Positions 6,431 to 24,377 of a stretch of DNA of 25,574 bases are shown one piece after another. Origin of the DNA: an uncultured Ignavibacteriaceae bacterium. Its GTDB lineage: Bacteria > Bacteroidota > Ignavibacteria > Ignavibacteriales > Ignavibacteriaceae. The DNA lies in the NCBI GenBank assembly GCA_964612385.1, contig CAZTDB010000002.1, forward strand, positions 1-25,574, written 5' to 3'. The translations under genes were made by a program, and so were the position numbers. The first letter of the stretch is position 1; every line of letters starts with the position of its first letter. The notes under the pieces are model-generated. The model did no database searches, was not told the origin of the DNA, and saw nothing but the letters and a program-made list of their open reading frames with translations.

Positions 6431-6617
6431 GGCGAAAGTGGCTGTTAATAAAAACGTTTTTACAGCATCTCGAATTTAAAAAGATTCGCATCAGTTAGCC
6501 CTTATCCTGTCAAATGCCTCACTTCGGATTTGAATTTGGATTCCTGTAATAATAAATATTTTTCTATGGATTGAATTTTTTCAAATTTGTAAATTTATTT
6601 GATGAAAGTATCCATTC

Positions 6618-6645
6618 AAAAAAGCCCCTCTGCAATTGAGGGGCT
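6618..6645 (-). terminator. Rho-independent terminator after the DUF433/DUF5615 operon
   Basis: Minus strand AGCCCCTC-AATTGCA-GAGGGGCT followed by a T-run, about 30 nt after the stop at 6678. Confidence 0.75.
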
Positions 6646-6677
6646 GACACAGGTCTTTATCATCCTGCAGCGGAAAA

Positions 6678-7025
6678 TTAAACAGGTAAAAATTCAACTC
6701 TATTCATCATTTCGTCAGGACTATAAATTTGCGAAATCAATTCTAAACTCTTAATACATTCACCGATTGTTACCTTCAACAGATGGCAATAAACAATTCC
6801 GTTAAAACTTTCCCCTATCTTTTGCATATCATTTGCAATAGCCAGAAAATCTTCATCGAAAGTAATAAAAATTCTTTCTAATGAAGAAGCTCTTTTTAAT
6901 AAGGAATAATCATCGAGTAAGGTGGTTTTATCTTCCTGAGAGGTTAAGACATTTATATTTCGTAATCGTAAACCAGTGGTAATAACACGCGGGATATGAA
7001 CATCCATATAAAAGCTTAATGCCAT
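6678..7025 (-). CDS. DUF5615 family PIN-like protein (putative toxin)
   Basis: FYMDVHIP...LRLRNINVLT...DD..LL..A..LERIFITFDEDF, the PIN-like acidic pattern; coupled to a DUF433 gene. Confidence 0.88.
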   Translation of the reverse strand: MALSFYMDVHIPRVITTGLRLRNINVLTSQEDKTTLLDDYSLLKRASSLERIFITFDEDFLAIANDMQKIGESFNGIVYCHLLKVTIGECIKSLELISQIYSPDEMMNRVEFLPV

Positions 7026-7330
7026 TATCCTGCTTTTTTATCGTGTAACTTAGAAGGTTTTTGATGCTTAAGAATTTTTTCTTTTAAGTCTTCAACATTA
7101 CGATTACCCTCATCCAGGAACTTTTGAAAGTCCTCAATATTATCCCAATAATAAGCAAAAGCGGAATGGATTTGCCCCAATGACAAATAACTATGCTGAA
7201 GATGAATTTCTTCCGGTCCCCAACCCCAGGCAATATATTCTTTAATTAGATCAATAACTTTAGTGGTTGTATTCTTAATTATAGGAATTCCATCCTTTGT
7301 TAAGCTTATGTGTTTATATTTTGTATCCAT
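7025..7330 (-). CDS. DUF433 domain protein (putative antitoxin)
   Basis: GIPIIKNTTTKVIDLI...GWGPEEIHLQHSYLSLGQIHSAFAYY; 1-nt overlap with the DUF5615 gene. Confidence 0.88.
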   Translation of the reverse strand: MDTKYKHISLTKDGIPIIKNTTTKVIDLIKEYIAWGWGPEEIHLQHSYLSLGQIHSAFAYYWDNIEDFQKFLDEGNRNVEDLKEKILKHQKPSKLHDKKAG

Positions 7331-7488
7331 ATTTTAGCCTAAAATTTTGATCCAAAATAGTTAAAAACTACATTATTTGAAAGTCTCAATACTCTAAACT
7401 TTACTGCCAATAAGCTGGGTTGAGTTCGTTAACCCAGGTAGCAATAAAAAATATTTTTATGTAGATTGAATTTTCTCATAGCAAAAAC

Positions 7489-7630
7489 AAACCTTAGTAA
7501 CAAAGTAAACAACAAAATACCCGGACATATCTATAGATTCCTTGAATTACTTTATAGATCAAACAATAAAAATTTTTATGATATTAATAAGGTTAAGCGT
7601 TTGGGAGGCATGTTTTATTACTTCACTTTT
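7489..7630. repeat. Degenerate copy of long inverted-repeat element H
   Basis: Left arm AAACCTTAGTAAC..AGTAAACAACAAAATACCC matches 8618-8652; right arm is eroded (TAATAAGGTTAAGCGTTTGG). Confidence 0.6.
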
Positions 7631-7733
7631 TTAATCCCTTCCGATTCATAGCTTTCCTATGCTGAAAAAGGTTGGAATATTTATAGGATTTTTAATATTT
7701 TATTGAAGAAATGAATTAGACCGGGGTTGAAAA

Positions 7734-8135
7734 ATGGAATTAAATGGAACACAAAATCAGCAGAATGTGACTACAGCCGAAGCCGAGCCTGAAGTTAAAC
7801 TGAAGCAGGAACTTAAACCGGATGACTGGTTATGTTTAATGTGCAGTAAAAAAATTACTGAAGATAAAGAGAGGTTTTTATTCGAAAATCAAAGTGAATT
7901 TCGATTCAGTAATCCCGACGGATATATTTTCGATATTATAACATTTCGAGCAGCAGACGGCTGCCGTGAAGAAGGTAAGCCCACTCTGGAATTTTCATGG
8001 TTTAAAGGGCATTCCTGGTGCTATGCTTTTTGCAGCCGGTGTGGTCTTCACCTCGGATGGAAATACTCAGGTAAATTCTCTTTCTACGGCTTGATCAAAG
8101 CAAGACTTATCAAAGGAGCAGCACTTTTTAATTAA
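7734..8135 (+). CDS. Cereblon-like (CULT / thalidomide-binding domain) zinc protein
   Basis: CLMC and CSRC zinc pairs, NPDG, FSWFKGHSW and HLGWKY (aromatic-cage residues of the CULT domain). Confidence 0.9.
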   Translation: MELNGTQNQQNVTTAEAEPEVKLKQELKPDDWLCLMCSKKITEDKERFLFENQSEFRFSNPDGYIFDIITFRAADGCREEGKPTLEFSWFKGHSWCYAFCSRCGLHLGWKYSGKFSFYGLIKARLIKGAALFN

Positions 8136-8251
8136 ATCATGTCTTTGCAAAAGGAAGAGTTGTCTGAATAGCTCATTTGGAAGGAGGATATCGTTAACCT
8201 CTGTAATAAAAAATATTTTTATGTGGATTGGATTTTCTCAAAGCACCAATC

Positions 8252-8437
8252 GAACTCTCTCTCAATCTCTCCCTTGGGAAGGGAGAGACTTTATTATCAT
8301 TTTAAAACTTTTCATTTATTGCTATTGTCAAGATGTAAAATGTGAAGATACAATTACCTATAAACCCTTCTCTTGGTAAGAGAAGGTCGTTAGACTCCGG
8401 CAGAGTCTAGCGGACTCTGACGAGGTTGGGATGAGTT
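8252..8437. repeat. Inverted doublet repeat D, copy 1 (two triloop hairpins, AACTC...GAGTT ends)
   Basis: Left TCTCTCCCTT-GGG-AAGGGAGAGA; right CCTTCTCTT-GGT-AAGAGAAGG...GGGATGAGTT. 8252-8341 matches 8770-8859 with 2 mismatches in 90 bp. Confidence 0.8.
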
Positions 8438-8445
8438 ATATTATA

Positions 8446-8600
8446 ACCTTTACCTGTGGGCTACATTGGGATTGTCAGAACGATCCTTTGGAGTAGTCTT
8501 TTTAGTTATGGTATTGATGGCAGCTTAAAGCTTAGAGTATTGAGAGAGTGAAGTTCCTGATAGCCAAGCGAAATAAAGAATATTTTTGTGTGGGTTAAAT
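8446..8600. repeat. Repeat unit P-M, copy 1
   Basis: ACCTTTACC..GGGATTG..GTAGTCTTTTTAGTTATG..TAAAGCTTAGAGTATTGAG..GAAGTTCCTGA..CAAGCGAAATAAA.AATATTTTTGTGTGG; homologous to 9015-9256, 10701-10855 and 12643-12790. Confidence 0.85.
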
Positions 8601-8617
8601 TATAGCAATACGGCTAG

Positions 8618-8769
8618 AAAACCTTAGTAACCGAGTAAACAACAGAATACCCAACCTTATCCGTAGGATCCAGTGGATTACATCATTACCAGGCAAGCAA
8701 GCTTTTATGAAACTAAATAAGGTAATAAGGTTAGCTGTTTGGTTGGGTATGGTCAGTTACTAAGGTTTT
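8618..8769. repeat. Long inverted-repeat element H with an 18-bp insert
   Basis: 14-bp perfect terminal IR AAAACCTTAGTAAC/GTTACTAAGGTTTT; right inner arm AATAAGGTAATAAGGT; left inner arm split by the insert at 8660-8677. Confidence 0.85.
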
Positions 8770-9007
8770 GAACTCTCTCTCAATCTCTCCCTTGGGAAGG
8801 GAGAGACCTTATTATCATTTTAAAACTTTTCATTTATTGCTATTGTCAAAATGTAAAATACAAAGTCATAAATACCAATCCGAAGGATCCTTTGGACAAG
8901 TCCTTCGCTTGGTCCTATGGATCCTTTGGATAAGGGAAAAATTGCAAGTCACGGCGTAGACTCCAGGTTATCATCAGAAGTTTGTGTCGTAGCCGGAGGA
9001 AGAGTTC
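8770..9007. repeat. Inverted doublet repeat D, copy 2 (with nested inserts)
   Basis: Offset 518 bp from copy 1; right hairpin split by an 18-bp insert at 8913-8930; 8897-9007 recurs at 24009-24119. Confidence 0.8.
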
Positions 9008-9014
9008 TTTTAAA

Positions 9015-9256
9015 ACCTTTACCCGGAGGCAGCATTGGAATTGTCGGAACGATTCTTTGGAGTAGTCTTTTTAGTTATGAGCCTGTCTGCCGGTTTATCT
9101 CTTTACCTCACGAACGGAGACCAATGAAGGATGGTTTACATACCTTTGGTATGCAAGCAGGGTTGTTGGCAGTTTAAAGCTTAGAGTATAGAGGGAGAGA
9201 AGTTCCTGACGGCCTGGCGAATAAAAACATATTTTTGTGTGGATTGAAGTTTCTCA
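9015..9256. repeat. Repeat unit P-M, copy 2 (with an ~80-bp composite insertion)
   Basis: Colinear with 8446-8600 except for an extra block CCTGTCTGCCGG...CATACCTTTGGTATG..CAAGCAGG. Confidence 0.85.
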
Positions 9257-9303
9257 GACTAGTGAAAGAAGTTGCTGGAAGAATATTAGGAAGAAAAAAT
9301 TGT

Positions 9304-9648
9304 TTATATATCCTTAATCAGATAATCACTCAATCTTTTTAATAATTTCTTATGACGAAATTCCGAAATTCTGCCAATCTTTCCAGCAACCAAATTAATT
9401 GGAGCAACCGCCAGAAAGCTTAATCGAATAATTGAATCTTTAATTATTCCACTATCTTTAAAATCATTATCTTTCTCTGAAATCAGTTCATCGAAGTTTT
9501 TAATTAGTTGATGGATTTGGGTGCTTATACCACAAACCAGAAAATCATTATAGGGTGAAGGAAGCTGCCGAAGAAGTAATACTGGTCTTAATTTTGATTT
9601 TCCATCTGCCTGAGGAAGGGCAGCAAGTACTACATCCCCCTCTTTCAT
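9304..9648 (-). CDS. PemK/MazF family endoribonuclease toxin
   Basis: GDVVLAALPQADGKSKLRPVLLL...VCGIST...GIIKDSIIR matches PemK/MazF; 4-nt overlap with the upstream small gene. Confidence 0.88.
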   Translation of the reverse strand: MKEGDVVLAALPQADGKSKLRPVLLLRQLPSPYNDFLVCGISTQIHQLIKNFDELISEKDNDFKDSGIIKDSIIRLSFLAVAPINLVAGKIGRISEFRHKKLLKRLSDYLIKDI

Positions 9649-9908
9649 TTTTTATAATCCGGGTTGGGTTCTTTAATCATTGAAACAGAGTATTCTGGTT
9701 CATCTTCAGAATATGCTTTGTTTAACTGAGATAAAGATGAATCAGCCCACTCCTTTCTTTCGTCTGAATCTGATTCAGATTTTCGGAACGATCCTTCGGA
9801 AAGAACAGTAACAAGTAATTTATCTTTTGGATGAAGCTCAAATGGTGCATCAAGTATTATTGATTTGCCATCGAAATGTGCAGGCAGTGTAATAAGCGGT
9901 TTTTTCAT
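9645..9908 (-). CDS. Putative antitoxin of the PemK-type toxin (start moved to ATG 9908, MKKPLITL...)
   Basis: Small gene with acidic C-terminus (AYSEDEPEYS) overlapping the toxin start. The ORF-track extension to 9977 starts at TTG inside repeat H sequence. Confidence 0.7.
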   Translation of the reverse strand: MKKPLITLPAHFDGKSIILDAPFELHPKDKLLVTVLSEGSFRKSESDSDERKEWADSSLSQLNKAYSEDEPEYSVSMIKEPNPDYKK

Positions 9909-10101
9909 TTTAATCAGAGTTTTTTTGTTTAAAGATAGTAAATAAATGTTTAACTGAAAACAAAACCTTAGTAGCAAGTAAACAACCGAATAATCAAAAC
10001 CAAGGCAAACGGTATTGTTTATTTTTCTTGTATTTCATTTATGTAGGAACATCAATTATGATGTTCATTATAAAAAAAATTTTTATGCGGAGTGGACCTG
10101 A

Positions 10102-10527
10102 TTAATTTTCCGGGTACTTTGCCTGAAGCCAGGTTATAGTTTCCTTCATTAACATTTTCAATTTTCCCTGGTCTATGTCCGAAAGTTTTTTGATGTAAAT
10201 ACAAGCCTTGCCCATCTTGAAATTTCCGAGACCATCCAGCAGATGTTTGTGCTTGTCGAGTCCGGTAAACACATAGAGTGAAATCGCTGCCTTACGCGGA
10301 GAGAAGCCGATCATTGGCGCATCACCCTCATGACCACTGTCGTATTTATAATGATATCTTCCAAAACCGATAATACTCGGACCCCACATTCTGGGTTTGT
10401 GACCTGAGATTGATTGCATCAGTTTTATTATGTCATAACTGTCATTTCGCTTCTGCTTTGTGTCTGCAAATTCGTTAATAAATTGCAGAACATCTTTTTC
10501 CGTTACAGTTGTTTTGTTTTTTGCCAT
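10102..10527 (-). CDS. DUF1801 (YdhG-like) domain protein
   Basis: PRMWGPSIIGFGRYHYKYDSGHEGD..GFSPRKAAISLY..LGNFKMGKACIYIKKLSDID is the DUF1801 family pattern. Confidence 0.88.
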   Translation of the reverse strand: MAKNKTTVTEKDVLQFINEFADTKQKRNDSYDIIKLMQSISGHKPRMWGPSIIGFGRYHYKYDSGHEGDAPMIGFSPRKAAISLYVFTGLDKHKHLLDGLGNFKMGKACIYIKKLSDIDQGKLKMLMKETITWLQAKYPEN

Positions 10528-10700
10528 AGATTAATTCCTTTATTGACTCACTTTAAATTAATAAAATTTTTTGTATCCGCATGGAGTGTAAATTTTGTTG
10601 TTGTGGATTAGGTTGTACTTACTGCACATTTTCCCAGCAATAATATTTTTATCCTGTAAAATATTGGCTTAATAATAGTAATTAGTTTTGATCAAAGAAC

Positions 10701-10855
10701 CCTGCCTACCGGTTTACTTACCGAATTTATCCAACGCAGGTAGAGGTATTGCTGGCAGTGTTGATGGAAGTTTAAAGCTTGGAGTATTGAGGGAGTGAAG
10801 TTCTTGACAGACAAGCGAAATGAAAAATATTTTTGTGTGGATTGAATTTTGTCAA
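10701..10855. repeat. Repeat unit P-M, copy 3 (partial, begins in a CCTGCCTACCGG palindrome remnant)
   Basis: TTTAAAGCTTGGAGTATTGAGGGAGTGAAGTTCTTGACAGACAAGCGAAATGAAAAATATTTTTGTGTGGATTGAATTTT aligns without gaps to the other copies. Confidence 0.8.
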
Positions 10856-10986
10856 AATAATTAAATACCGTGATTGGCTTTCCATTAAATCACATATTTT
10901 TAATTTCCTATAATACAATAACTTATCTATCCCTTCCTCTTTTTCGTCGGTTTGTTTTTAATAAGAAAATAGAATAAATTAACATA

Positions 10987-11042
10987 ATAAACTAAAAACC
11001 ATACTTCATTATAAACTATAAATTAAGCAACACAATAAACTA
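10987..11042 (+). promoter_or_regulatory. Three ATAAACTA direct repeats at 24-bp spacing upstream of the Fic gene (possible operator)
   Basis: ATAAACTA at 10987, 11011 and 11035; ATG at 11050. Confidence 0.45.
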
Positions 11043-11049
11043 AAATATA

Positions 11050-12576
11050 ATGGCAGCACCACACCAAAAATTAGCTCAGTCCCTTGAAGTGTTAAAGCAA
11101 TTCCAGGATAAGAATGGAGTAGCAATAATAAAATCTGATGCACTTTCAAGAACCCATAGAGAACGACTGTTGAAAAATGGTTTCATCAAAGAAGTCATGA
11201 AAGGGTGGTACATTTCAAACAATCCGCAGGAAAGAAAGGGTGAAAGTACAGCCTGGTATTCGGCTTTTTGGAAATTTTGTTCTGTTTACCTGAATGATCG
11301 TTTCGATAAGGACTGGTGCGTTTCGCCCGACCAATCAATATCATTGCATTGCGAAAACTGGACGATACCAAAGCAGTTGTTGATTCGTTCCTCCAAAGCA
11401 AGTAATAATGTTACCAACCTTTTATTTGATACATCACTTGTAGATGCAGTATTAACTATGCCTGCAGAAACAGATATTATTGAAAAGAATGGCATACGTA
11501 TTTTCTCTTTAACCTCTGCCTTGTTGGCCTGTACGCCGAATTTCTTTTCACAAAATCCAATAGATGCCCGGACAGCACTAACCGGTGTAAAAGATGCTTC
11601 AGAAATACTGGTACCGCTTCTTGATGGAGGTAATTCCGTTATTGCAGGGAGGCTGGCAGGTGCATTCAGAAATATCGGAAGAGACCGCATTGCTGATGAA
11701 ATTATTAAAACTATGAAAGCAGCCGGTTATGATATACGTGAAAATGATCCGTTTGAAAAAAAGCTTCAATATACTTTTACAGACCGCTCCACTTCTCCGT
11801 ACGTAAACAGAATAAAATTGATGTGGCAGCAGATGCGTGAACCTATACTAAAATATTTTCCCAAACCACCTGGTATTCCCACAGATAAAACCTCTTATTT
11901 CAAACTTGTTGATGATAATTATAAAACTGATGCATACCATTCATTATCTATCGAAGGTTACAGGGTCACATCAGAACTGATAGAACGTGTAATGGGCGGT
12001 AACTGGAACCCGGACAGAAATGAAAAAGATAATGAGCAGAAAAATGCTCTTGCTGCCCGCGGCTATTTTCTTGCTTTTGAAGCTGTAAAAAAAAGTATAG
12101 CAAAAATATTTGAAGATGAAAATCCCGGGAAAGTAGCAGACGATGATCACAGCGATTGGTACAGAGAAATGTTTAGCCCATCTGTAACAGCAGGCTTATT
12201 ACGTACCTCTGATCTTGCCGGCTACAGGAATTCACAGGTTTACGTTTCTAACTCAAATCATATTCCTATGAACTGTGATGGTGTCCGGGATGCAATGCCG
12301 GTTTTATTTGATATGCTAAAGGACGAAAAAGAGCCGGCTGTCCGGGCAGTGCTTGGACATTTTATTTTCGTTTACATTCATCCCTATATGGATGGTAACG
12401 GAAGAATAGGCAGATTTCTGATGAATGTAATGCTGGCATCAGGAGGTTTCCCCTGGACCATTATAACTTTAGAAAGACGAAATGATTATATGAATGCTTT
12501 AGAAAAGGCGAGTGTTGAACAAAACATTAGTGATTTTGCTAAATTTATTGCGAGCCTCGTCAGCGAAAAAAAATAA
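11050..12576 (+). CDS. Fic family protein (508 aa) with long N-terminal extension
   Basis: Canonical Fic motif HPYMDGNGRIGR near the C-terminus; AYHSLSIEGY upstream. Confidence 0.92.
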   Translation: MAAPHQKLAQSLEVLKQFQDKNGVAIIKSDALSRTHRERLLKNGFIKEVMKGWYISNNPQERKGESTAWYSAFWKFCSVYLNDRFDKDWCVSPDQSISLHCENWTIPKQLLIRSSKASNNVTNLLFDTSLVDAVLTMPAETDIIEKNGIRIFSLTSALLACTPNFFSQNPIDARTALTGVKDASEILVPLLDGGNSVIAGRLAGAFRNIGRDRIADEIIKTMKAAGYDIRENDPFEKKLQYTFTDRSTSPYVNRIKLMWQQMREPILKYFPKPPGIPTDKTSYFKLVDDNYKTDAYHSLSIEGYRVTSELIERVMGGNWNPDRNEKDNEQKNALAARGYFLAFEAVKKSIAKIFEDENPGKVADDDHSDWYREMFSPSVTAGLLRTSDLAGYRNSQVYVSNSNHIPMNCDGVRDAMPVLFDMLKDEKEPAVRAVLGHFIFVYIHPYMDGNGRIGRFLMNVMLASGGFPWTIITLERRNDYMNALEKASVEQNISDFAKFIASLVSEKK

Positions 12577-12642
12577 GATACATTTTTATTGGTAACGGCT
12601 CAGGAAAGAGTTGGGTTTGTTATGGAGATGAGCCTTTAAATT

Positions 12643-12790
12643 CTTTACCCTTTGTGCAGCTTTGGGATTGCCGAAACGATCCTTTGGAGTAGTCTTTTTA
12701 ATTATAGGTTGATAGCAGTTTAAAGCTTAGAGTACTGAGCGAGAGAAGTTCCTGACTGCCAAGCGAAATAAAAAATATTTTTATGTGGAT
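12643..12790. repeat. Repeat unit P-M, copy 4
   Basis: CTTTACCC..GGGATTG..GTAGTCTTTTTAATTATAG..TTTAAAGCTTAGAGTACTGAG..GAAGTTCCTGACTGCCAAGCGAAATAAAAAATATTTTTATGTGG. Confidence 0.85.
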
Positions 12791-12827
12791 ATTACCTGCA
12801 GCCTACTTTTTAGATTTGTTTTCGTGT

Positions 12828-13154
12828 TTATATCTTTTGAAGTAATGATAAGAGTTGCGGCAGGTTATTATTAACGGTATTCCATACAAGCTCAATGTTA
12901 ACTTCAAAGTATCCATGGATTAATCTGTTCCTCATTCCAATAATATCTTTCCACGGTACTTCAGGATATTTTAGTTTTATTTCTTCGGATATTTTTGAAG
13001 CGGCTTCTCCAATTATTTCAATTTCCTTAATTACAGAAAGAATGAGCATCCTGTTTTGAGAAAAATCTTTTTCAGAAATTTCATCAGTAAATGATAATGC
13101 TTCCTCTGCTGCATCAATCATATGCTGAATCCTGATTCTGTCTTCAGGCTTCAT
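12828..13154 (-). CDS. hepT: HepT-like HEPN ribonuclease toxin (DUF86)
   Basis: RX4HXY motif RNRLIHGY; EIIGEAAS..PEVPWKDIIGMR. Confidence 0.9.
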   Translation of the reverse strand: MKPEDRIRIQHMIDAAEEALSFTDEISEKDFSQNRMLILSVIKEIEIIGEAASKISEEIKLKYPEVPWKDIIGMRNRLIHGYFEVNIELVWNTVNNNLPQLLSLLQKI

Positions 13155-13440
13155 ATTTAACTTTTGCTTCTTTTACAATAGTATCTCTGAAATATCTGCT
13201 TAGTTCTTCGGGTGTGCGAAGATCAACTTTTACACCGATTATTTCAGAAAGTTCACGTTCCAGTCTTGCCACATCAAGTAAACCGTAGCCGGTATTTTTC
13301 TCAAACTCTACCAGCAAATCAATATCACTTCCTACACTATAAGAATTTTTTAAATAAGACCCGAACAAAGAAAGTTTTCTAATCTTATTTGCTTTGCAAA
13401 AATCTTTAAGTTCTTTTGACTTTTTGGTTAATATATCCAT
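13144..13440 (-). CDS. mntA: MntA-like minimal nucleotidyltransferase antitoxin
   Basis: GSX10DXD motif in LFGSYLKNSYSVGSDIDLLVEF; overlaps the hepT start. Confidence 0.9.
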   Translation of the reverse strand: MDILTKKSKELKDFCKANKIRKLSLFGSYLKNSYSVGSDIDLLVEFEKNTGYGLLDVARLERELSEIIGVKVDLRTPEELSRYFRDTIVKEAKVKYEA

Positions 13441-13559
13441 AACGTTTGATTTTTTTTTACAATTTAAATTTATTCATTTGCGGGCTGCTATGAAAATGGA
13501 ATTTGTATCTTAAAAAACATAAAAATACTTTTTTACACGGAATGAAAGTCGAAGTATTA

Positions 13560-13674
13560 GTCTGGAAGTGGCAGGCTCTGAATGTAATACACGGGAAATG
13601 TTCCTTATGGACCCTTAAGGAAACAGGTTAAGGTTTAGTAATACTGTAAATAAAAGTTAATGCTAAAATGAAGG
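13560..13674. repeat. Repeat R, copy 1 (empty form)
   Basis: GTCTGGAAGTGG..CTGAATGTAATACAC.GGAAATGT..CTTATGGACCC..GGAAACAGGTTAAGGTTTAGTAATACTGTAAATAAAAGTTAAT..AAATGAAGG; homologous to 14478-14685. Confidence 0.8.
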
Positions 13675-13766
13675 AGCGAGAATATGTTAGGAAGTTCTTG
13701 TCCGCATTTGGAGGAGTTCCTGAAAGCCTTGGGAATATAATAACCTGGGGTGAAGTTTTATGCTTG

Positions 13767-14015
13767 TTATTTATAAATATCTTTTCTATGTCCGATTCGA
13801 AGTATAATTACTTTGTCTTTATCAATGTCAAAGATAACCCTGTAATCCCCTATTCTGAATCTATATGAACCAATGAGTGGATTAGATAATTTTCTGCTAT
13901 TACCAACAGGATCATTAATTAAAGTTTTTTACTTTTTTTTAATTGTTACCTTAACATCTTCATTTAATTTATCAATATCCTTTATAGCTCTTTTTACAAG
14001 AATGATTTTGTACAT
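13767..14015 (-). pseudogene. RelE/ParE family toxin gene with in-frame TAA at codon 29
   Basis: Manual translation: MYKIILVKRAIKDIDKLNEDVKVTIKKK*KTLINDPVGNSRKLSNPLIGSYRFRIGDYRVIFDIDKDKVIILRIGHRKDIYK*. TAATG overlap with the antitoxin; internal stop at 13929-13931. Confidence 0.88.
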
Positions 14016-14206
14016 TAAAGTACTTCATCAATGTCTTTGAAATCCCCTGCTTTGTAATCTTCCCGTGCTTCACGAATGGAATTAATATAATCCTTGCTTG
14101 ATAGTGCTTTTAAATCTTCGAGATAATCTTCAATTGCTTCCTGAACAGATTTTGAAATTAATTCTTTTAACTCGTCAATAGTTAGTTCCGATACTCTTGT
14201 GTTCAT
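14015..14206 (-). CDS. Putative antitoxin of the RelE-type toxin
   Basis: 63-aa acidic protein (SIREAREDYKAGDFKDIDEVL) translationally coupled to the RelE-like frame; GGAG RBS. Confidence 0.78.
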   Translation of the reverse strand: MNTRVSELTIDELKELISKSVQEAIEDYLEDLKALSSKDYINSIREAREDYKAGDFKDIDEVL

Positions 14207-14298
14207 TTATTGCTCCTGTTTTAGAATTGGATTTTCATTGCTATAATTTTAATAAATATTTCGGCGAATAAAAAGAGTTGATTAAATACATTTGAAAA

Positions 14299-14429
14299 TA
14301 ACCTTAGTAACACAGCACACAACCCCGGGATAAAAACCTTATTACCTTATTAAAAAGTGAATATTTTTTTAGAATGAATAAGGTAATAAGGTCAGTGGTC
14401 TTGGTTACAGGATTTCGTTACTAAGGTTA
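14299..14429. repeat. Long inverted-repeat element H, intact copy
   Basis: 13-bp outer IR (14299-14311/14417-14429), 16-bp inner IR (14336-14351/14377-14392), 24-nt unpaired spacers on both sides, 25-nt central loop. Confidence 0.88.
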
Positions 14430-14477
14430 ATACTTATGGAAAACCATATCGTTACTTGGTGTGCGAGTCTAAACCCT

Positions 14478-14685
14478 GTCAGGAAGTGCCTGATTCTGAA
14501 TGGAATACACCTGTAATGTCATCCTGCCTGCCCCTTGGGGATGTTGCCTGCCCTCTGTAATGAAATGAAGGAGGGTTGAAGGAAATGTCATCCTGAGCTT
14601 GTCGAAGGATGTCTCTTATGGACCCTGACGGAAACAGATTAAGGTTTAGTAATCCTGTTAATAAAAGTTAATACTTAAATGAAGG
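14478..14685. repeat. Repeat R, copy 2 (filled with two palindromic insertions)
   Basis: Colinear with 13560-13674 apart from an ~70-bp composite at 14511-14580 and the 24-bp TGTCATCCTGAGCTTGTCGAAGGA at 14586-14609. Confidence 0.8.
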
Positions 14686-14774
14686 GAAAGCATTTGGCAG
14701 GGAGTAGTCTTGACAGTCTTGAAAAGTTATATAATTAAATAGTGTAATTTGGTTGGTTGTAGATAGGAAATATT

Positions 14775-15179
14775 TTATTCTTCAAATCTATTACGGTTCA
14801 TATCAGAATATGTACTATAATCGGTTGTAAGTTCTTCACCCTTTTTTATATCTCTAATCGCAAAAAATAATAAATTTTTATCCGCAGCAACGTTTGGCTC
14901 CTGTGAATAATTAAGATACCAGGCAACAGTTAATTGATTAAAATTTTTAGGGCATCCGTACGAACTACCTTTTTTAACACAAAAGTCTTTATACAATTTT
15001 TTGATTTCTTTTGGTAAATGATTTAACCTGCTTTTTTTAATCCAAACTAAATCTTCATCATCACCATAAAATATATATGTTCCTTTTTTAATATTTTTAA
15101 TTGCAAATACACCAACTCCATGAATTTTGGAAGGAGCTAGACGTGTAAATACTTTATCATGGGGAAGTTTATTTTTCAT
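14775..15179 (-). CDS. SET domain-containing protein (putative protein lysine methyltransferase)
   Basis: SKIHGVGVFAIKNIKKG, YLNYSQEPNV (NHS..PN position) and AIRDIKKGEELTTDY. Confidence 0.88.
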   Translation of the reverse strand: MKNKLPHDKVFTRLAPSKIHGVGVFAIKNIKKGTYIFYGDDEDLVWIKKSRLNHLPKEIKKLYKDFCVKKGSSYGCPKNFNQLTVAWYLNYSQEPNVAADKNLLFFAIRDIKKGEELTTDYSTYSDMNRNRFEE

Positions 15180-15188
15180 ATAACTTTA

Positions 15189-15761
15189 TTACCATTTAAA
15201 GTATGGAAACTTTTTATCGTATTTATATTTATTTGCATTGCGAATTACCCAGTAATAAATAAATAAACTAATTATTATAGGTACAATTATAAAAAATACA
15301 AAATTATTATGATTTACAAGAAATTCAATTGAGCTGAGGATTGTTAAAATATATTCGATAGTCGCAAATACAGAAAGCCAGAATGCTATAATATAAGGTA
15401 TCCAGGATTTCCAACAATCAGCATCTTTCAACCATTCTTCTAATCTGCATTCTGTAAAATCCTTTTGTATAACTTCCAGAGAAATTTGACCATAATACCA
15501 CGCAAGCTTTGACCTCTGTTTATAAAATAAAGCTGAAGCGATAAATAATGCAACAGATGCCAATATTAAAAACCAAATTCCCTTATCAGTTAAATTACTT
15601 GCTACATTGAATGCAACAGAATTTTTATCAATGGAAATTATTCTTTCAATTACTATTGAAGGTACAGCAACACAAAATGCAGATAATATTCCCATGATTG
15701 TCATTTCTTTATCCAAATAGTCTAAATAATATTTAACATCTGAATTCATAATAGTCTCCAT
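15189..15761 (-). CDS. Hypothetical membrane protein (about 4 hydrophobic segments)
   Basis: 190 aa with four long hydrophobic stretches; 9-nt gap to the SET gene. Confidence 0.75.
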   Translation of the reverse strand: METIMNSDVKYYLDYLDKEMTIMGILSAFCVAVPSIVIERIISIDKNSVAFNVASNLTDKGIWFLILASVALFIASALFYKQRSKLAWYYGQISLEVIQKDFTECRLEEWLKDADCWKSWIPYIIAFWLSVFATIEYILTILSSIEFLVNHNNFVFFIIVPIIISLFIYYWVIRNANKYKYDKKFPYFKW

Positions 15762-15809
15762 TAGAAAATCAAATATTGACGGATATTGCTTCTAAAATGC
15801 ACCTGCGTT

Positions 15810-16556
15810 TTATAACTTTTTTGATTTTTGTTTATTTAATATTTTTTTCATCTCTTTAATAGTATATGGTTCACCTGACTTTTTATGAATCATTGCATGG
15901 CAATTTGGACAAACTGGAATTAAATCTTTTATTGGATCAACGTGGTATGTCTTTTTTATTTTACCAATAGGTGTCAGGTGGTGTATATGAATAAAGCCCT
16001 TACCCAATTCACCATAAGTTTTTTCGAAATCAAAAGAACAAACAGAACAAATTGCTTTATAATAAGCAATGCATTTCTCCCGATCTTCTGTATTACGTTC
16101 ATATAAGTTTACAGTTACTTTATGTTGTGCACCTTCTGGAAATGAATCTGAACTTTCGATCTCTTCAGGCGACAAATATACTGTCTGCTTGTTAACAGCA
16201 TACCATTCATCATTAATTTTTTCAAGTGAGCGATCATACAATTCTTTTATAATATAGTCTATAACTGCTGGCGAATCTTTTGGTAATCCTTTTTTTTCTA
16301 TCATTGGAAAAATTTTAAGAGAATATCCTTTATTGGTCACCAAATTTATATTTTCTAGTGCTTCATCATAAGCTTTGTTTTTTTTGTGATTATGGTAAGC
16401 CCAAGATTCTTTTAGAATCATAATATATTCAGGATCTTCATTCCAATCCCAATAACCAAAGATTACACATTTTTTTTTATGATTAACAAATGACCAACTC
16501 CATAACCAATTTTTACATGTAGCTCCATGGGATTCAATAAATTTTTTTCTGCTCAT
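15810..16556 (-). CDS. HNH endonuclease (McrA-like C-terminal domain)
   Basis: CSVCSFDFEKTYGELGKGFIHIHHLTP...DLIPVCPNCHAMIH zinc-HNH module with an unrelated N-terminal domain. Confidence 0.9.
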   Translation of the reverse strand: MSRKKFIESHGATCKNWLWSWSFVNHKKKCVIFGYWDWNEDPEYIMILKESWAYHNHKKNKAYDEALENINLVTNKGYSLKIFPMIEKKGLPKDSPAVIDYIIKELYDRSLEKINDEWYAVNKQTVYLSPEEIESSDSFPEGAQHKVTVNLYERNTEDREKCIAYYKAICSVCSFDFEKTYGELGKGFIHIHHLTPIGKIKKTYHVDPIKDLIPVCPNCHAMIHKKSGEPYTIKEMKKILNKQKSKKL

Positions 16557-16653
16557 AAAAAATTACCTTTTGGAAATTAATGTTTGTAAAAAAAATATTT
16601 TTATAGGGATTACATATGATTTTGAATTAATTGAACTCTCTCTAAATCTCTCC

Positions 16654-17271
16654 TTATCTACCTGCTTCATTAGCAACCTCTTCAATCCAATTAGAAAAAT
16701 TCGAATTGCCATCATCCATTATCCAACAATATGTATCAAATTTTTCTGAGAATCGAAAAAATTTTCCAAAGTCATTAAATATTAACCAGTCAGCAAAATA
16801 GAGTGTGTTCGATTTTTTATTATTGATCGTGGGTAGTTCTTTATAAATAGTCCATTTCCGGTTTAATAATTCGTAGAAATGAATTCTTTCTCCATCCTCT
16901 GAAATTTCGAACCCAAGCTTATCAAGTGGATTTATGCCCCTTGGAGTTATACCTATTTTACCTTTAATTCTATTGATGTGTATTCCTAAAATTCCATTAC
17001 CACGTTCAAAACTTTTAATTATCTCATAATTAATGCACTTTCTATTAGCCGTACTTTCACCGATTAAAACAGTTGTAATTGAAGTTTTCTTCAGTCCACT
17101 TTCAATAAGTTGCTTTATAGCATGATCTTCTTGTGTTTTAAGTTTTTCCCAGATTGAACCATCAACAAAAGTCTCATTACTATGTCTCATTAACCAACTA
17201 TTACGAACTACATTTACTTTGAAGTTCTTAACATCTTCATATGCAAAACTAAAGAAGACAAATCTCGCCAT
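16654..17271 (-). CDS. ThsB-like TIR domain protein (DUF1863 type)
   Basis: VFFSFAYED..VNVVRNSW..IKQLIESGLKKTSITTVLIG..YEIIKSFERGNGILGIHI; catalytic Glu position (YEI) retained. Confidence 0.88.
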   Translation of the reverse strand: MARFVFFSFAYEDVKNFKVNVVRNSWLMRHSNETFVDGSIWEKLKTQEDHAIKQLIESGLKKTSITTVLIGESTANRKCINYEIIKSFERGNGILGIHINRIKGKIGITPRGINPLDKLGFEISEDGERIHFYELLNRKWTIYKELPTINNKKSNTLYFADWLIFNDFGKFFRFSEKFDTYCWIMDDGNSNFSNWIEEVANEAGR

Positions 17272-24126: not shown

Positions 24127-24377
24127 CTCACCACCTTCTTAACCAACCCATCTATCTCCTTTCCAAAGGATCCTTCGGACATCTCTTCTGCAAGGTGTTT
24201 CTTTATATCGAGACGGAGTTTGCCTAAACGCCTGCCTGTTTGGCAGGTAAATATGGCGCTTAGTTCTTTCCGAAGGATGGCGTCCATTTGCTGTGGATTG
24301 TCTTCTCCCAAAGGGATGCAAAAGCATAAATATTTTGCTGTTTTTTGTGTGCTGCTTAGCTTAGTTCTGTAAGCTTT
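24127..24377 (-). pseudogene. Decayed 3' fragment of a paralog of the RM enzyme gene with four short insertions
   Basis: Aligns to about 20345-20522 (KLAELSERAHKKAVKFLEDNPPQKELTATRLGKLRLDIKKYLAAEMKEIDRLVKRVV); one premature TAA, a 1-nt deletion, and inserts of 18, 21, 18 and 21 nt. Confidence 0.88.

Follow-up and report, generated by a model that had tools for sequence, protein, structure and literature searches.

A repeat between toxin-antitoxin and defence modules in Ignavibacteriales corresponds to the start of a nuclease-like gene

Architecture of the locus

The stretch of DNA analyzed here (the window) is a 25,574-nt sequence from an uncultured Ignavibacteriaceae bacterium, which forms one entire contig (CAZTDB010000002.1) of a 2.96-Mb assembly that is 78% complete (GCA_964612385.1, henceforth G000). 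Its central part is a run of small modules, typically toxin-antitoxin (TA) pairs and defence-type genes, bordered by a short motif that the original prediction had taken for the possible recombination or target site of an undescribed gene-capture array. We show that this motif, read as its reverse complement, is the opening of an accessory gene for a ~395-aa PD-(D/E)XK nuclease-like protein, from the start codon to about codon 16; its copies are termed stubs below. Stubs recur in a common orientation in variable islets of several Ignavibacteriales genera, where they are found with one pool of small cargo genes and with the relics of other gene ends.

A scoring matrix was built from eight of the copies first reported, and each copy was scored with itself excluded. 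With it, nine plus-strand copies are recovered in the window at leave-one-out scores of 12-43 bits, their 38-mers starting at 6544, 7439, 8201, 8568, 9217, 10065, 10815, 12763 and 16583. The claim of about ten copies in one orientation accordingly stands for these nine, but not for position 13519, which scores -27.5 and holds no copy. Above 18 bits there are 11 matches in the real genome as against none in two locally shuffled genomes, and only one further strong copy is found in the rest of the assembly (C16:5171, ~15-20 nt past the stop of an NYN gene). Placement after minus-strand stops was likewise correct for five copies, which lie ~10-95 nt downstream of the DUF5615, PemK, DUF1801, HepT and TIR genes, but not for the four at 7439, 8201, 8568 and 10815, which follow no such stop. 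Two modules are devoid of any gene, and the Yippee-like and Fic cargo genes point the opposite way. The reported ungapped continuation of four copies into a further block, P, is confirmed: these form a single 116-nt family without gaps.

All stubs are read on the minus strand, as is the cargo unless stated otherwise. Stub 1 (6537..6584), with a TTG start, codons 1-16 and a stop at codon 7, is the first copy past a penicillin amidase gene that flanks the array and is 90% identical to its closest relative, from an Ignavibacteriales metagenome-assembled genome. A DUF433/DUF5615 TA pair (6678..7330) separates it from stub 2 (7429..7479), which keeps its ATG and 16 open codons (MRKFNLHKNIFYCYLG) ahead of a stop and of a repetitive extragenic palindromic (REP) end, Q. 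Beyond a plus-strand gene for a 133-aa Yippee-like protein (7734..8135; a weak Pfam match), also present in the arrays L106, L160 and L139, lies stub 3 (8194..8241), with a TTG start and 15 open codons, one codon being lost, followed by a stop. It is succeeded by repeat D, a DUF559-type REP arm (8248..8360; a second copy at 8768-8878 and a D stub at ~16633-16656), by the first copy of block P (8429..8567; the others at ~8998-9216, 10745-10814 and 12625-12762) and by stub 4 (8570..8599; codons ~4-13, fused to P). An inverted-repeat element, H (8618..8769), resembling a miniature inverted-repeat transposable element, occupies the space between stub 4 and repeat D.

Stub 5 (9219..9257), frameshifted past codon 9 and fused to P, is found 47 nt after the stop of PemK, which is encoded with its antitoxin at 9304..9977 in a module common to L016, L118 and L160 at other positions. 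The weak stub 6 (10067..10093; only codons ~5-12) is directly past the stop of a DUF1801 gene (10102..10527). Stub 7 (10817..10855; TTG start, codons 1-11 recognizable) and stub 8 (12765..12791; codons ~6-13, the 5' part replaced) are both fused to P and lie on either side of a plus-strand gene for a 508-aa Fic protein (11050..12576). An MNT/HepT TA pair (12828..13440) is followed by a longer stretch of cargo (13774..16556) with a broken RelE-like gene and its intact antitoxin, element H, a SET gene, an unknown gene and an HNH gene. The weak stub 9 (16586..16611; codons ~5-11) is placed past the last TIR gene and a D stub.

The repeat is the start of a nuclease-like gene

In the genome G505 the profile match falls on the 5' end of an intact minus-strand open reading frame (ORF) of 394 aa. 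This has 241 homologues, and its N-terminus, MRKFNPYRNIFYYYRG, is the conserved signature of the family, while the stub consensus translates as LRKFNPHKNIFYYCRG from a TTG. A profile made from 84 intact N-termini only places the copies at 7476, on C16, at 6581 and at 8238 at ranks 1-4 of the 5,875,848 six-frame windows of G000. At the DNA level intact alleles are 78-87% identical to the motif over 38-50 nt, and across 26 stubs conservation starts at the start codon and fades past codon 13-16. What had been proposed as a possible recombination site of a cassette-like array is, in its origin, the beginning of a nuclease-like gene (codons 1-16) read backwards. The synonymous variation among the intact homologues argues that they are unlikely to be mis-called ORFs.

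The parent protein has an invariant P78, D79, E92 and K94 (P-D...E-x-K). Its predicted model (predicted local distance difference test score 91.6) gives an ESM Atlas match of TM 0.80 to a PDDEXK_4-containing cluster and weak PDB matches to MspJI, NucS/EndoMS and SfsA. Residues, model and structure matches together assign it to the PD-(D/E)XK nuclease-like proteins, with a predicted nuclease activity and a second domain that resembles DUF1054; searches of Pfam, PADLOC and PDB sequences returned no name for it. The gene is intact in 8 of 251 family genomes, usually as the downstream member of defence-type operons, 10-20 nt past the stop of another gene, and the neighbours of the family include GmrSD, ADP-ribosylglycohydrolase and AbiE. 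Within these 251 genomes it was found neither in G000 nor in the other stub-bearing genera searched, and no other piece of it turned up in the arrays or in the genome G000. The family in its own right (L162:7648-8832; homologues P0121-P0240) is without a Pfam or PADLOC model and is a candidate defence nuclease.

Changes among the stubs are spread over codon positions 1, 2 and 3 as 24/30/37 and comprise 19 synonymous, 53 missense and 8 stop changes, with frameshifts in addition; the synonymous share of 0.24 is within the neutral expectation of 0.15-0.24. Intact alleles, in contrast, show 8/9/35 by codon position, a synonymous share of 0.58 and no stops. The stops and the lack of codon-position bias thus indicate that the stubs no longer code for protein. 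They resemble each other more than any intact allele, and one 3' junction with a REP end is common to most of them. The REP ends Q and D match the REPs that flank DUF559 genes, that at the Q junction being identical to them; the motif itself as a remnant of a DUF559 gene is unsupported. Given that the stubs are mutually closest and share this 3' junction, we infer a single truncation that was then copied. Block P is a separate repeat, also found without the right half of the motif. Six-frame searches for its origin gave only another P copy, and an apparent synonymous pattern was not upheld (27/10/13 by codon position).

Distribution and reshuffling of the modules

By sequence profile, strong copies are present in only 6 of 151 family genomes and in none from other families of the order; matches below ~25 bits were taken as noise, and four that were inspected gave no clear stubs. 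In the sister species G001, whose genome is 100% complete, three copies occupy the corresponding spot; the cargo there differs, and the PemK module takes another place in the order. In G018, which belongs to another genus, clusters at two unrelated loci draw on the same cargo pool in new orders. Altogether, stubs with the same reshuffled cargo occur at unrelated loci in four genera, and metagenome contigs supply extra copies near menB and accA. A BLAST search with P plus the motif over 401 genomes of the class gave one strong foreign match, while viral contigs gave no exact match. The array-like layout first described is therefore real, with modules that are reshuffled between genomes, and the same building blocks in independent assemblies argue against an assembly artefact.

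The expectation that modules would break at a fixed base of the motif, on the other hand, largely failed. Of 16 comparisons between shared modules, a single one gives an alignment across the motif; elsewhere the ends lie 2-400 nt off, with one pair more than 1 kb away, figures to be read with the distance of the compared genomes in mind, as later decay may blur the original module ends. The readable junctions sit at short chance matches: in L106 codon 4 of a stub meets the Yippee-like gene, in L118 P runs into the Fic gene and in L016 HepT is joined onto the final bases of a PemK gene. Fic homologues occur beside the motif and also without it, the latter being 85-88% identical in DNA.

Other arrangements were observed alongside. 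L106:2228-4932 shows a duplication, on either side of Fic, of block P together with the 3' part of the Yippee-like gene, joined within a stub at a short chance match. The 3' stubs (~residues 990-1059) of an Eco57I-like restriction-modification gene border other modules, both in the window (24129-24305) and in L016, L159, L118 and L106. Upstream of a similar array, at L118:6288-7548, a 309-bp unit with a GIY-YIG gene is repeated in tandem as four identical copies. With respect to the cargo itself, the RelE-like toxin gene (13774-14206) is broken by a single stop codon next to an intact 63-aa antitoxin, and its copy in G018 is more eroded. The PemK antitoxin gene contains an in-frame 18-bp palindrome (9783-9800) that is absent from the G001 allele and has 96 similar copies genome-wide. 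The Fic gene is preceded by three direct repeats of ~24 nt (~10970-11049), which are kept at every Fic homologue locus seen and are probably its operator. Towards the left end of the window a Y1_Tnp gene resembling the REP-associated tyrosine transposases (RAYTs) is placed between inverted 22-nt palindromes (313-894; region 265-966).

Interpretation of the repeat and its rivals

The repeat is real and its origin is identified and fairly ordinary: by the features tested it is not attC, dif, rAID or REPIN. None of the 9 copies has a RYYYAAC/GTTRRRY pair (core boxes 55-145 nt apart) nearby, both strands being covered to a distance of 100 nt. None of the 30 window ORFs scanned codes for a tyrosine or serine recombinase, the contig ending 6.5 and 9 kb from the array, and no XerD-like recombinase stands next to the array in the window or beside L016, L159 and L160. 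The original prediction had already remarked on the absence of such boxes, of a dif-like site and of a recombinase, and these observations hold. The ~60-nt hairpin that it proposed does not: five of six copies tested fold no better than shuffles (z ~0), and although 91% of cells are pairable there are 0 compensatory changes over 13 pairs. An attC site is thus rejected for want of core boxes, a supported hairpin, covariation and a fixed crossover base, and a structured RNA for want of covariation and of any Rfam match to the motif. The canonical dif-like site of G000 lies at C357 ~1614-1641. Its best match to the copies, 13-15/28, equals that to random sequence, and the site pairs around modules are all direct, none inverse, which discards both chromosomal dif and pdif. 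A REPIN is set aside as the RAYT-flanking palindromes differ and the copies are clustered and few.

Under the explanation that we consider probable, the repeat is the scar of a gene start that was copied along as a passenger and now provides short portable homology in patchwork TA/defence islets, rather than a recognizable gene-capture site. A nuclease-like gene was cut off after ~codon 16 beside a DUF559-type REP arm, and copies of this single truncated allele would have spread as passengers on small modules. The stub, in common with P, D and the tails of restriction genes, would then offer 40-60 bp of portable homology, so that modules could be added, swapped and lost by host recombination, with a repeat as the anchor at one end and microhomology at the opposite one. 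If such exchange through the stub were recurrent and recent, its copies would stay alike between species. The scattered module ends, the microhomology junctions and the repeated gene-end relics together point to such host recombination anchored on short repeats, and the repeat may work like a portable joint. Comparable events are known as homology-facilitated illegitimate recombination, with one anchored and one microhomology end (PMC6382021); the junctions in L106, L118 and L016 fit this pattern, as judged from their sequences.

Several points weigh against this explanation. Most upstream junctions fall within a narrow interval, from ~10 nt before the start codon to codon 5; the exact parent allele was not found; and homology of 40-60 bp is short for RecA. 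Moreover, the stubs do not decay at the neutral rate: between G000 and G001 they retain 85% DNA identity, where fourfold sites in the adjacent genes would predict ~62% (P 1e-5 to 2e-2 per pair), and in the common PemK module of these genomes the motif is 90% and the adjoining spacer 64% identical. The palindromic A5/T5 core is nearly invariant, an apparent conservation inflated by the fact that copies were found via this core. The excess identity could owe something to recent exchange through the stub, to the copies having been picked by their core and to a low substitution rate in AT runs, and constraint at the DNA level could likewise have a part in it.

The same conservation also speaks for the notion, which we hold to be unlikely, that the relic was recruited as a dedicated joining site. 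A non-integron module-shuffling system of one Ignavibacteriales family would then use the pseudogene start as a site-specific recombination or target site, through an enzyme acting in trans on the palindromic core with its 7-bp centre; this is compatible with the gene origin. It would account for the above-neutral conservation and near-invariant core, for the same orientation within each cluster and for the homology of the PemK module with G001, which starts at the motif. G000 also has a XerA/integron-like enzyme, one of its three tyrosine recombinases beside XerD and XerC, all on other contigs, and G001 has a true IntI, an integron integrase adjoining a transposase fragment at a contig end (L101:1162-2124; G001:C114). 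Yet the XerA/integron-like enzyme has no common orthologue in the other stub-bearing genomes, with nothing closer than 38% in G001 and G467, there is no fixed crossover base, the junctions within stubs spread over codons 1-5, the cargo genes also travel without the motif, compensatory changes are absent and the conservation of the core is overstated by the manner of its detection. Of a gene-capture site acted on in trans there thus remains the better-than-neutral conservation, set against a gene-start origin, scattered breakpoints and the lack of a dedicated recombinase accompanying the stub-bearing genomes.

It is also quite improbable that the stub is a passenger between REP arms, D upstream and Q downstream, moved in REPIN-like manner by a REP-cutting enzyme of the RAYT or DUF559 family. 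D is indeed found 9-16 nt upstream of the start codon in 7 of 26 stubs and Q directly past codon 16 in most, so that the stub occupies the place of a DUF559 gene between its REPs, and the window has the RAYT-like Y1_Tnp gene. Nevertheless, the palindromes flanking that gene differ in sequence, the G000 assembly has no DUF559 gene, the copies are clustered unlike dispersed REPINs, with only 6 D starts genome-wide, and a literature search gave no report tying DUF559 to REP mobility.

Very little credence can be given to the 5' end of the nuclease gene as an attB of an integrative element, whose repeated integration would have left displaced gene starts. A precedent is presented by the SXT/R391 elements, which integrate into the prfC 5' end and form tandem arrays with gene-start sequence repeated in direct orientation at module junctions (PMC2786100). 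All stubs here are gene starts in direct orientation, and one intact homologue adjoins a tyrosine integrase; however, the arrays have no integrase, core target gene or element-sized modules, the sequence preceding the stubs has no constant attP arm, the end of the array has neither an intact gene nor a remnant downstream, and the stubs are at many unrelated loci. Equally remote is a duplicated promoter, terminator or operator kept to regulate the cargo: above-neutral conservation and three copies overlapping sigma-70-like minus-strand matches speak for it, but promoter-like sites number 37 as against 42 in shuffles, no copy is terminator-like, Rfam has no match, the copies take no consistent position with respect to genes and two modules have no gene to regulate.

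Literature searches returned nothing on this arrangement, but partial parallels exist. Clusters of attC sites lacking integron-integrases and sedentary chromosomal integrons share co-oriented repeats past stops and TA-rich, reshuffled cargo; here, in contrast, there are no R''/R' boxes, supported hairpin or fixed crossover, the repeat is a gene start and the cargo is on both strands with its own promoters. Paired pdif sites are inverted, unlike the direct sites of these arrays, whose similarity to host dif is that of chance. Otherwise the pdif modules of Acinetobacter plasmids are comparable as small TA/defence modules between short AT-rich sites with the recombinase in trans (PMC13141974). 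The rAID-1 arrays of Bacteroidales, from a related superphylum, are low-GC gene arrays with repeated intergenic motifs too, but their definition requires a XerD-like recombinase at the 5' side as well as co-directional immunity genes, and both are absent here (10.1101/471110). Eroding chromosomal type II TA islets, as described, occupy small, fixed genomic spots with no attached mobile element and combine TA pairs with pseudogenes and remnants of DNA; spread by homologous recombination is proposed for them (PMC13617665). The remnants reported there are of TA genes, whereas here one repeated non-TA gene start lies between the modules.

An apparent unknown cassette site is thus explained as the scar of a gene. 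This offers a caution for motif-based hunts for integron-like systems, in which a repeat should be translated first. Were the above-neutral conservation to reflect a site bound by an enzyme, this would be a recombination site born from coding sequence. For these Ignavibacteriales, the arrays would be an example of recombinase-free TA/defence islets joined at the relics of gene ends.

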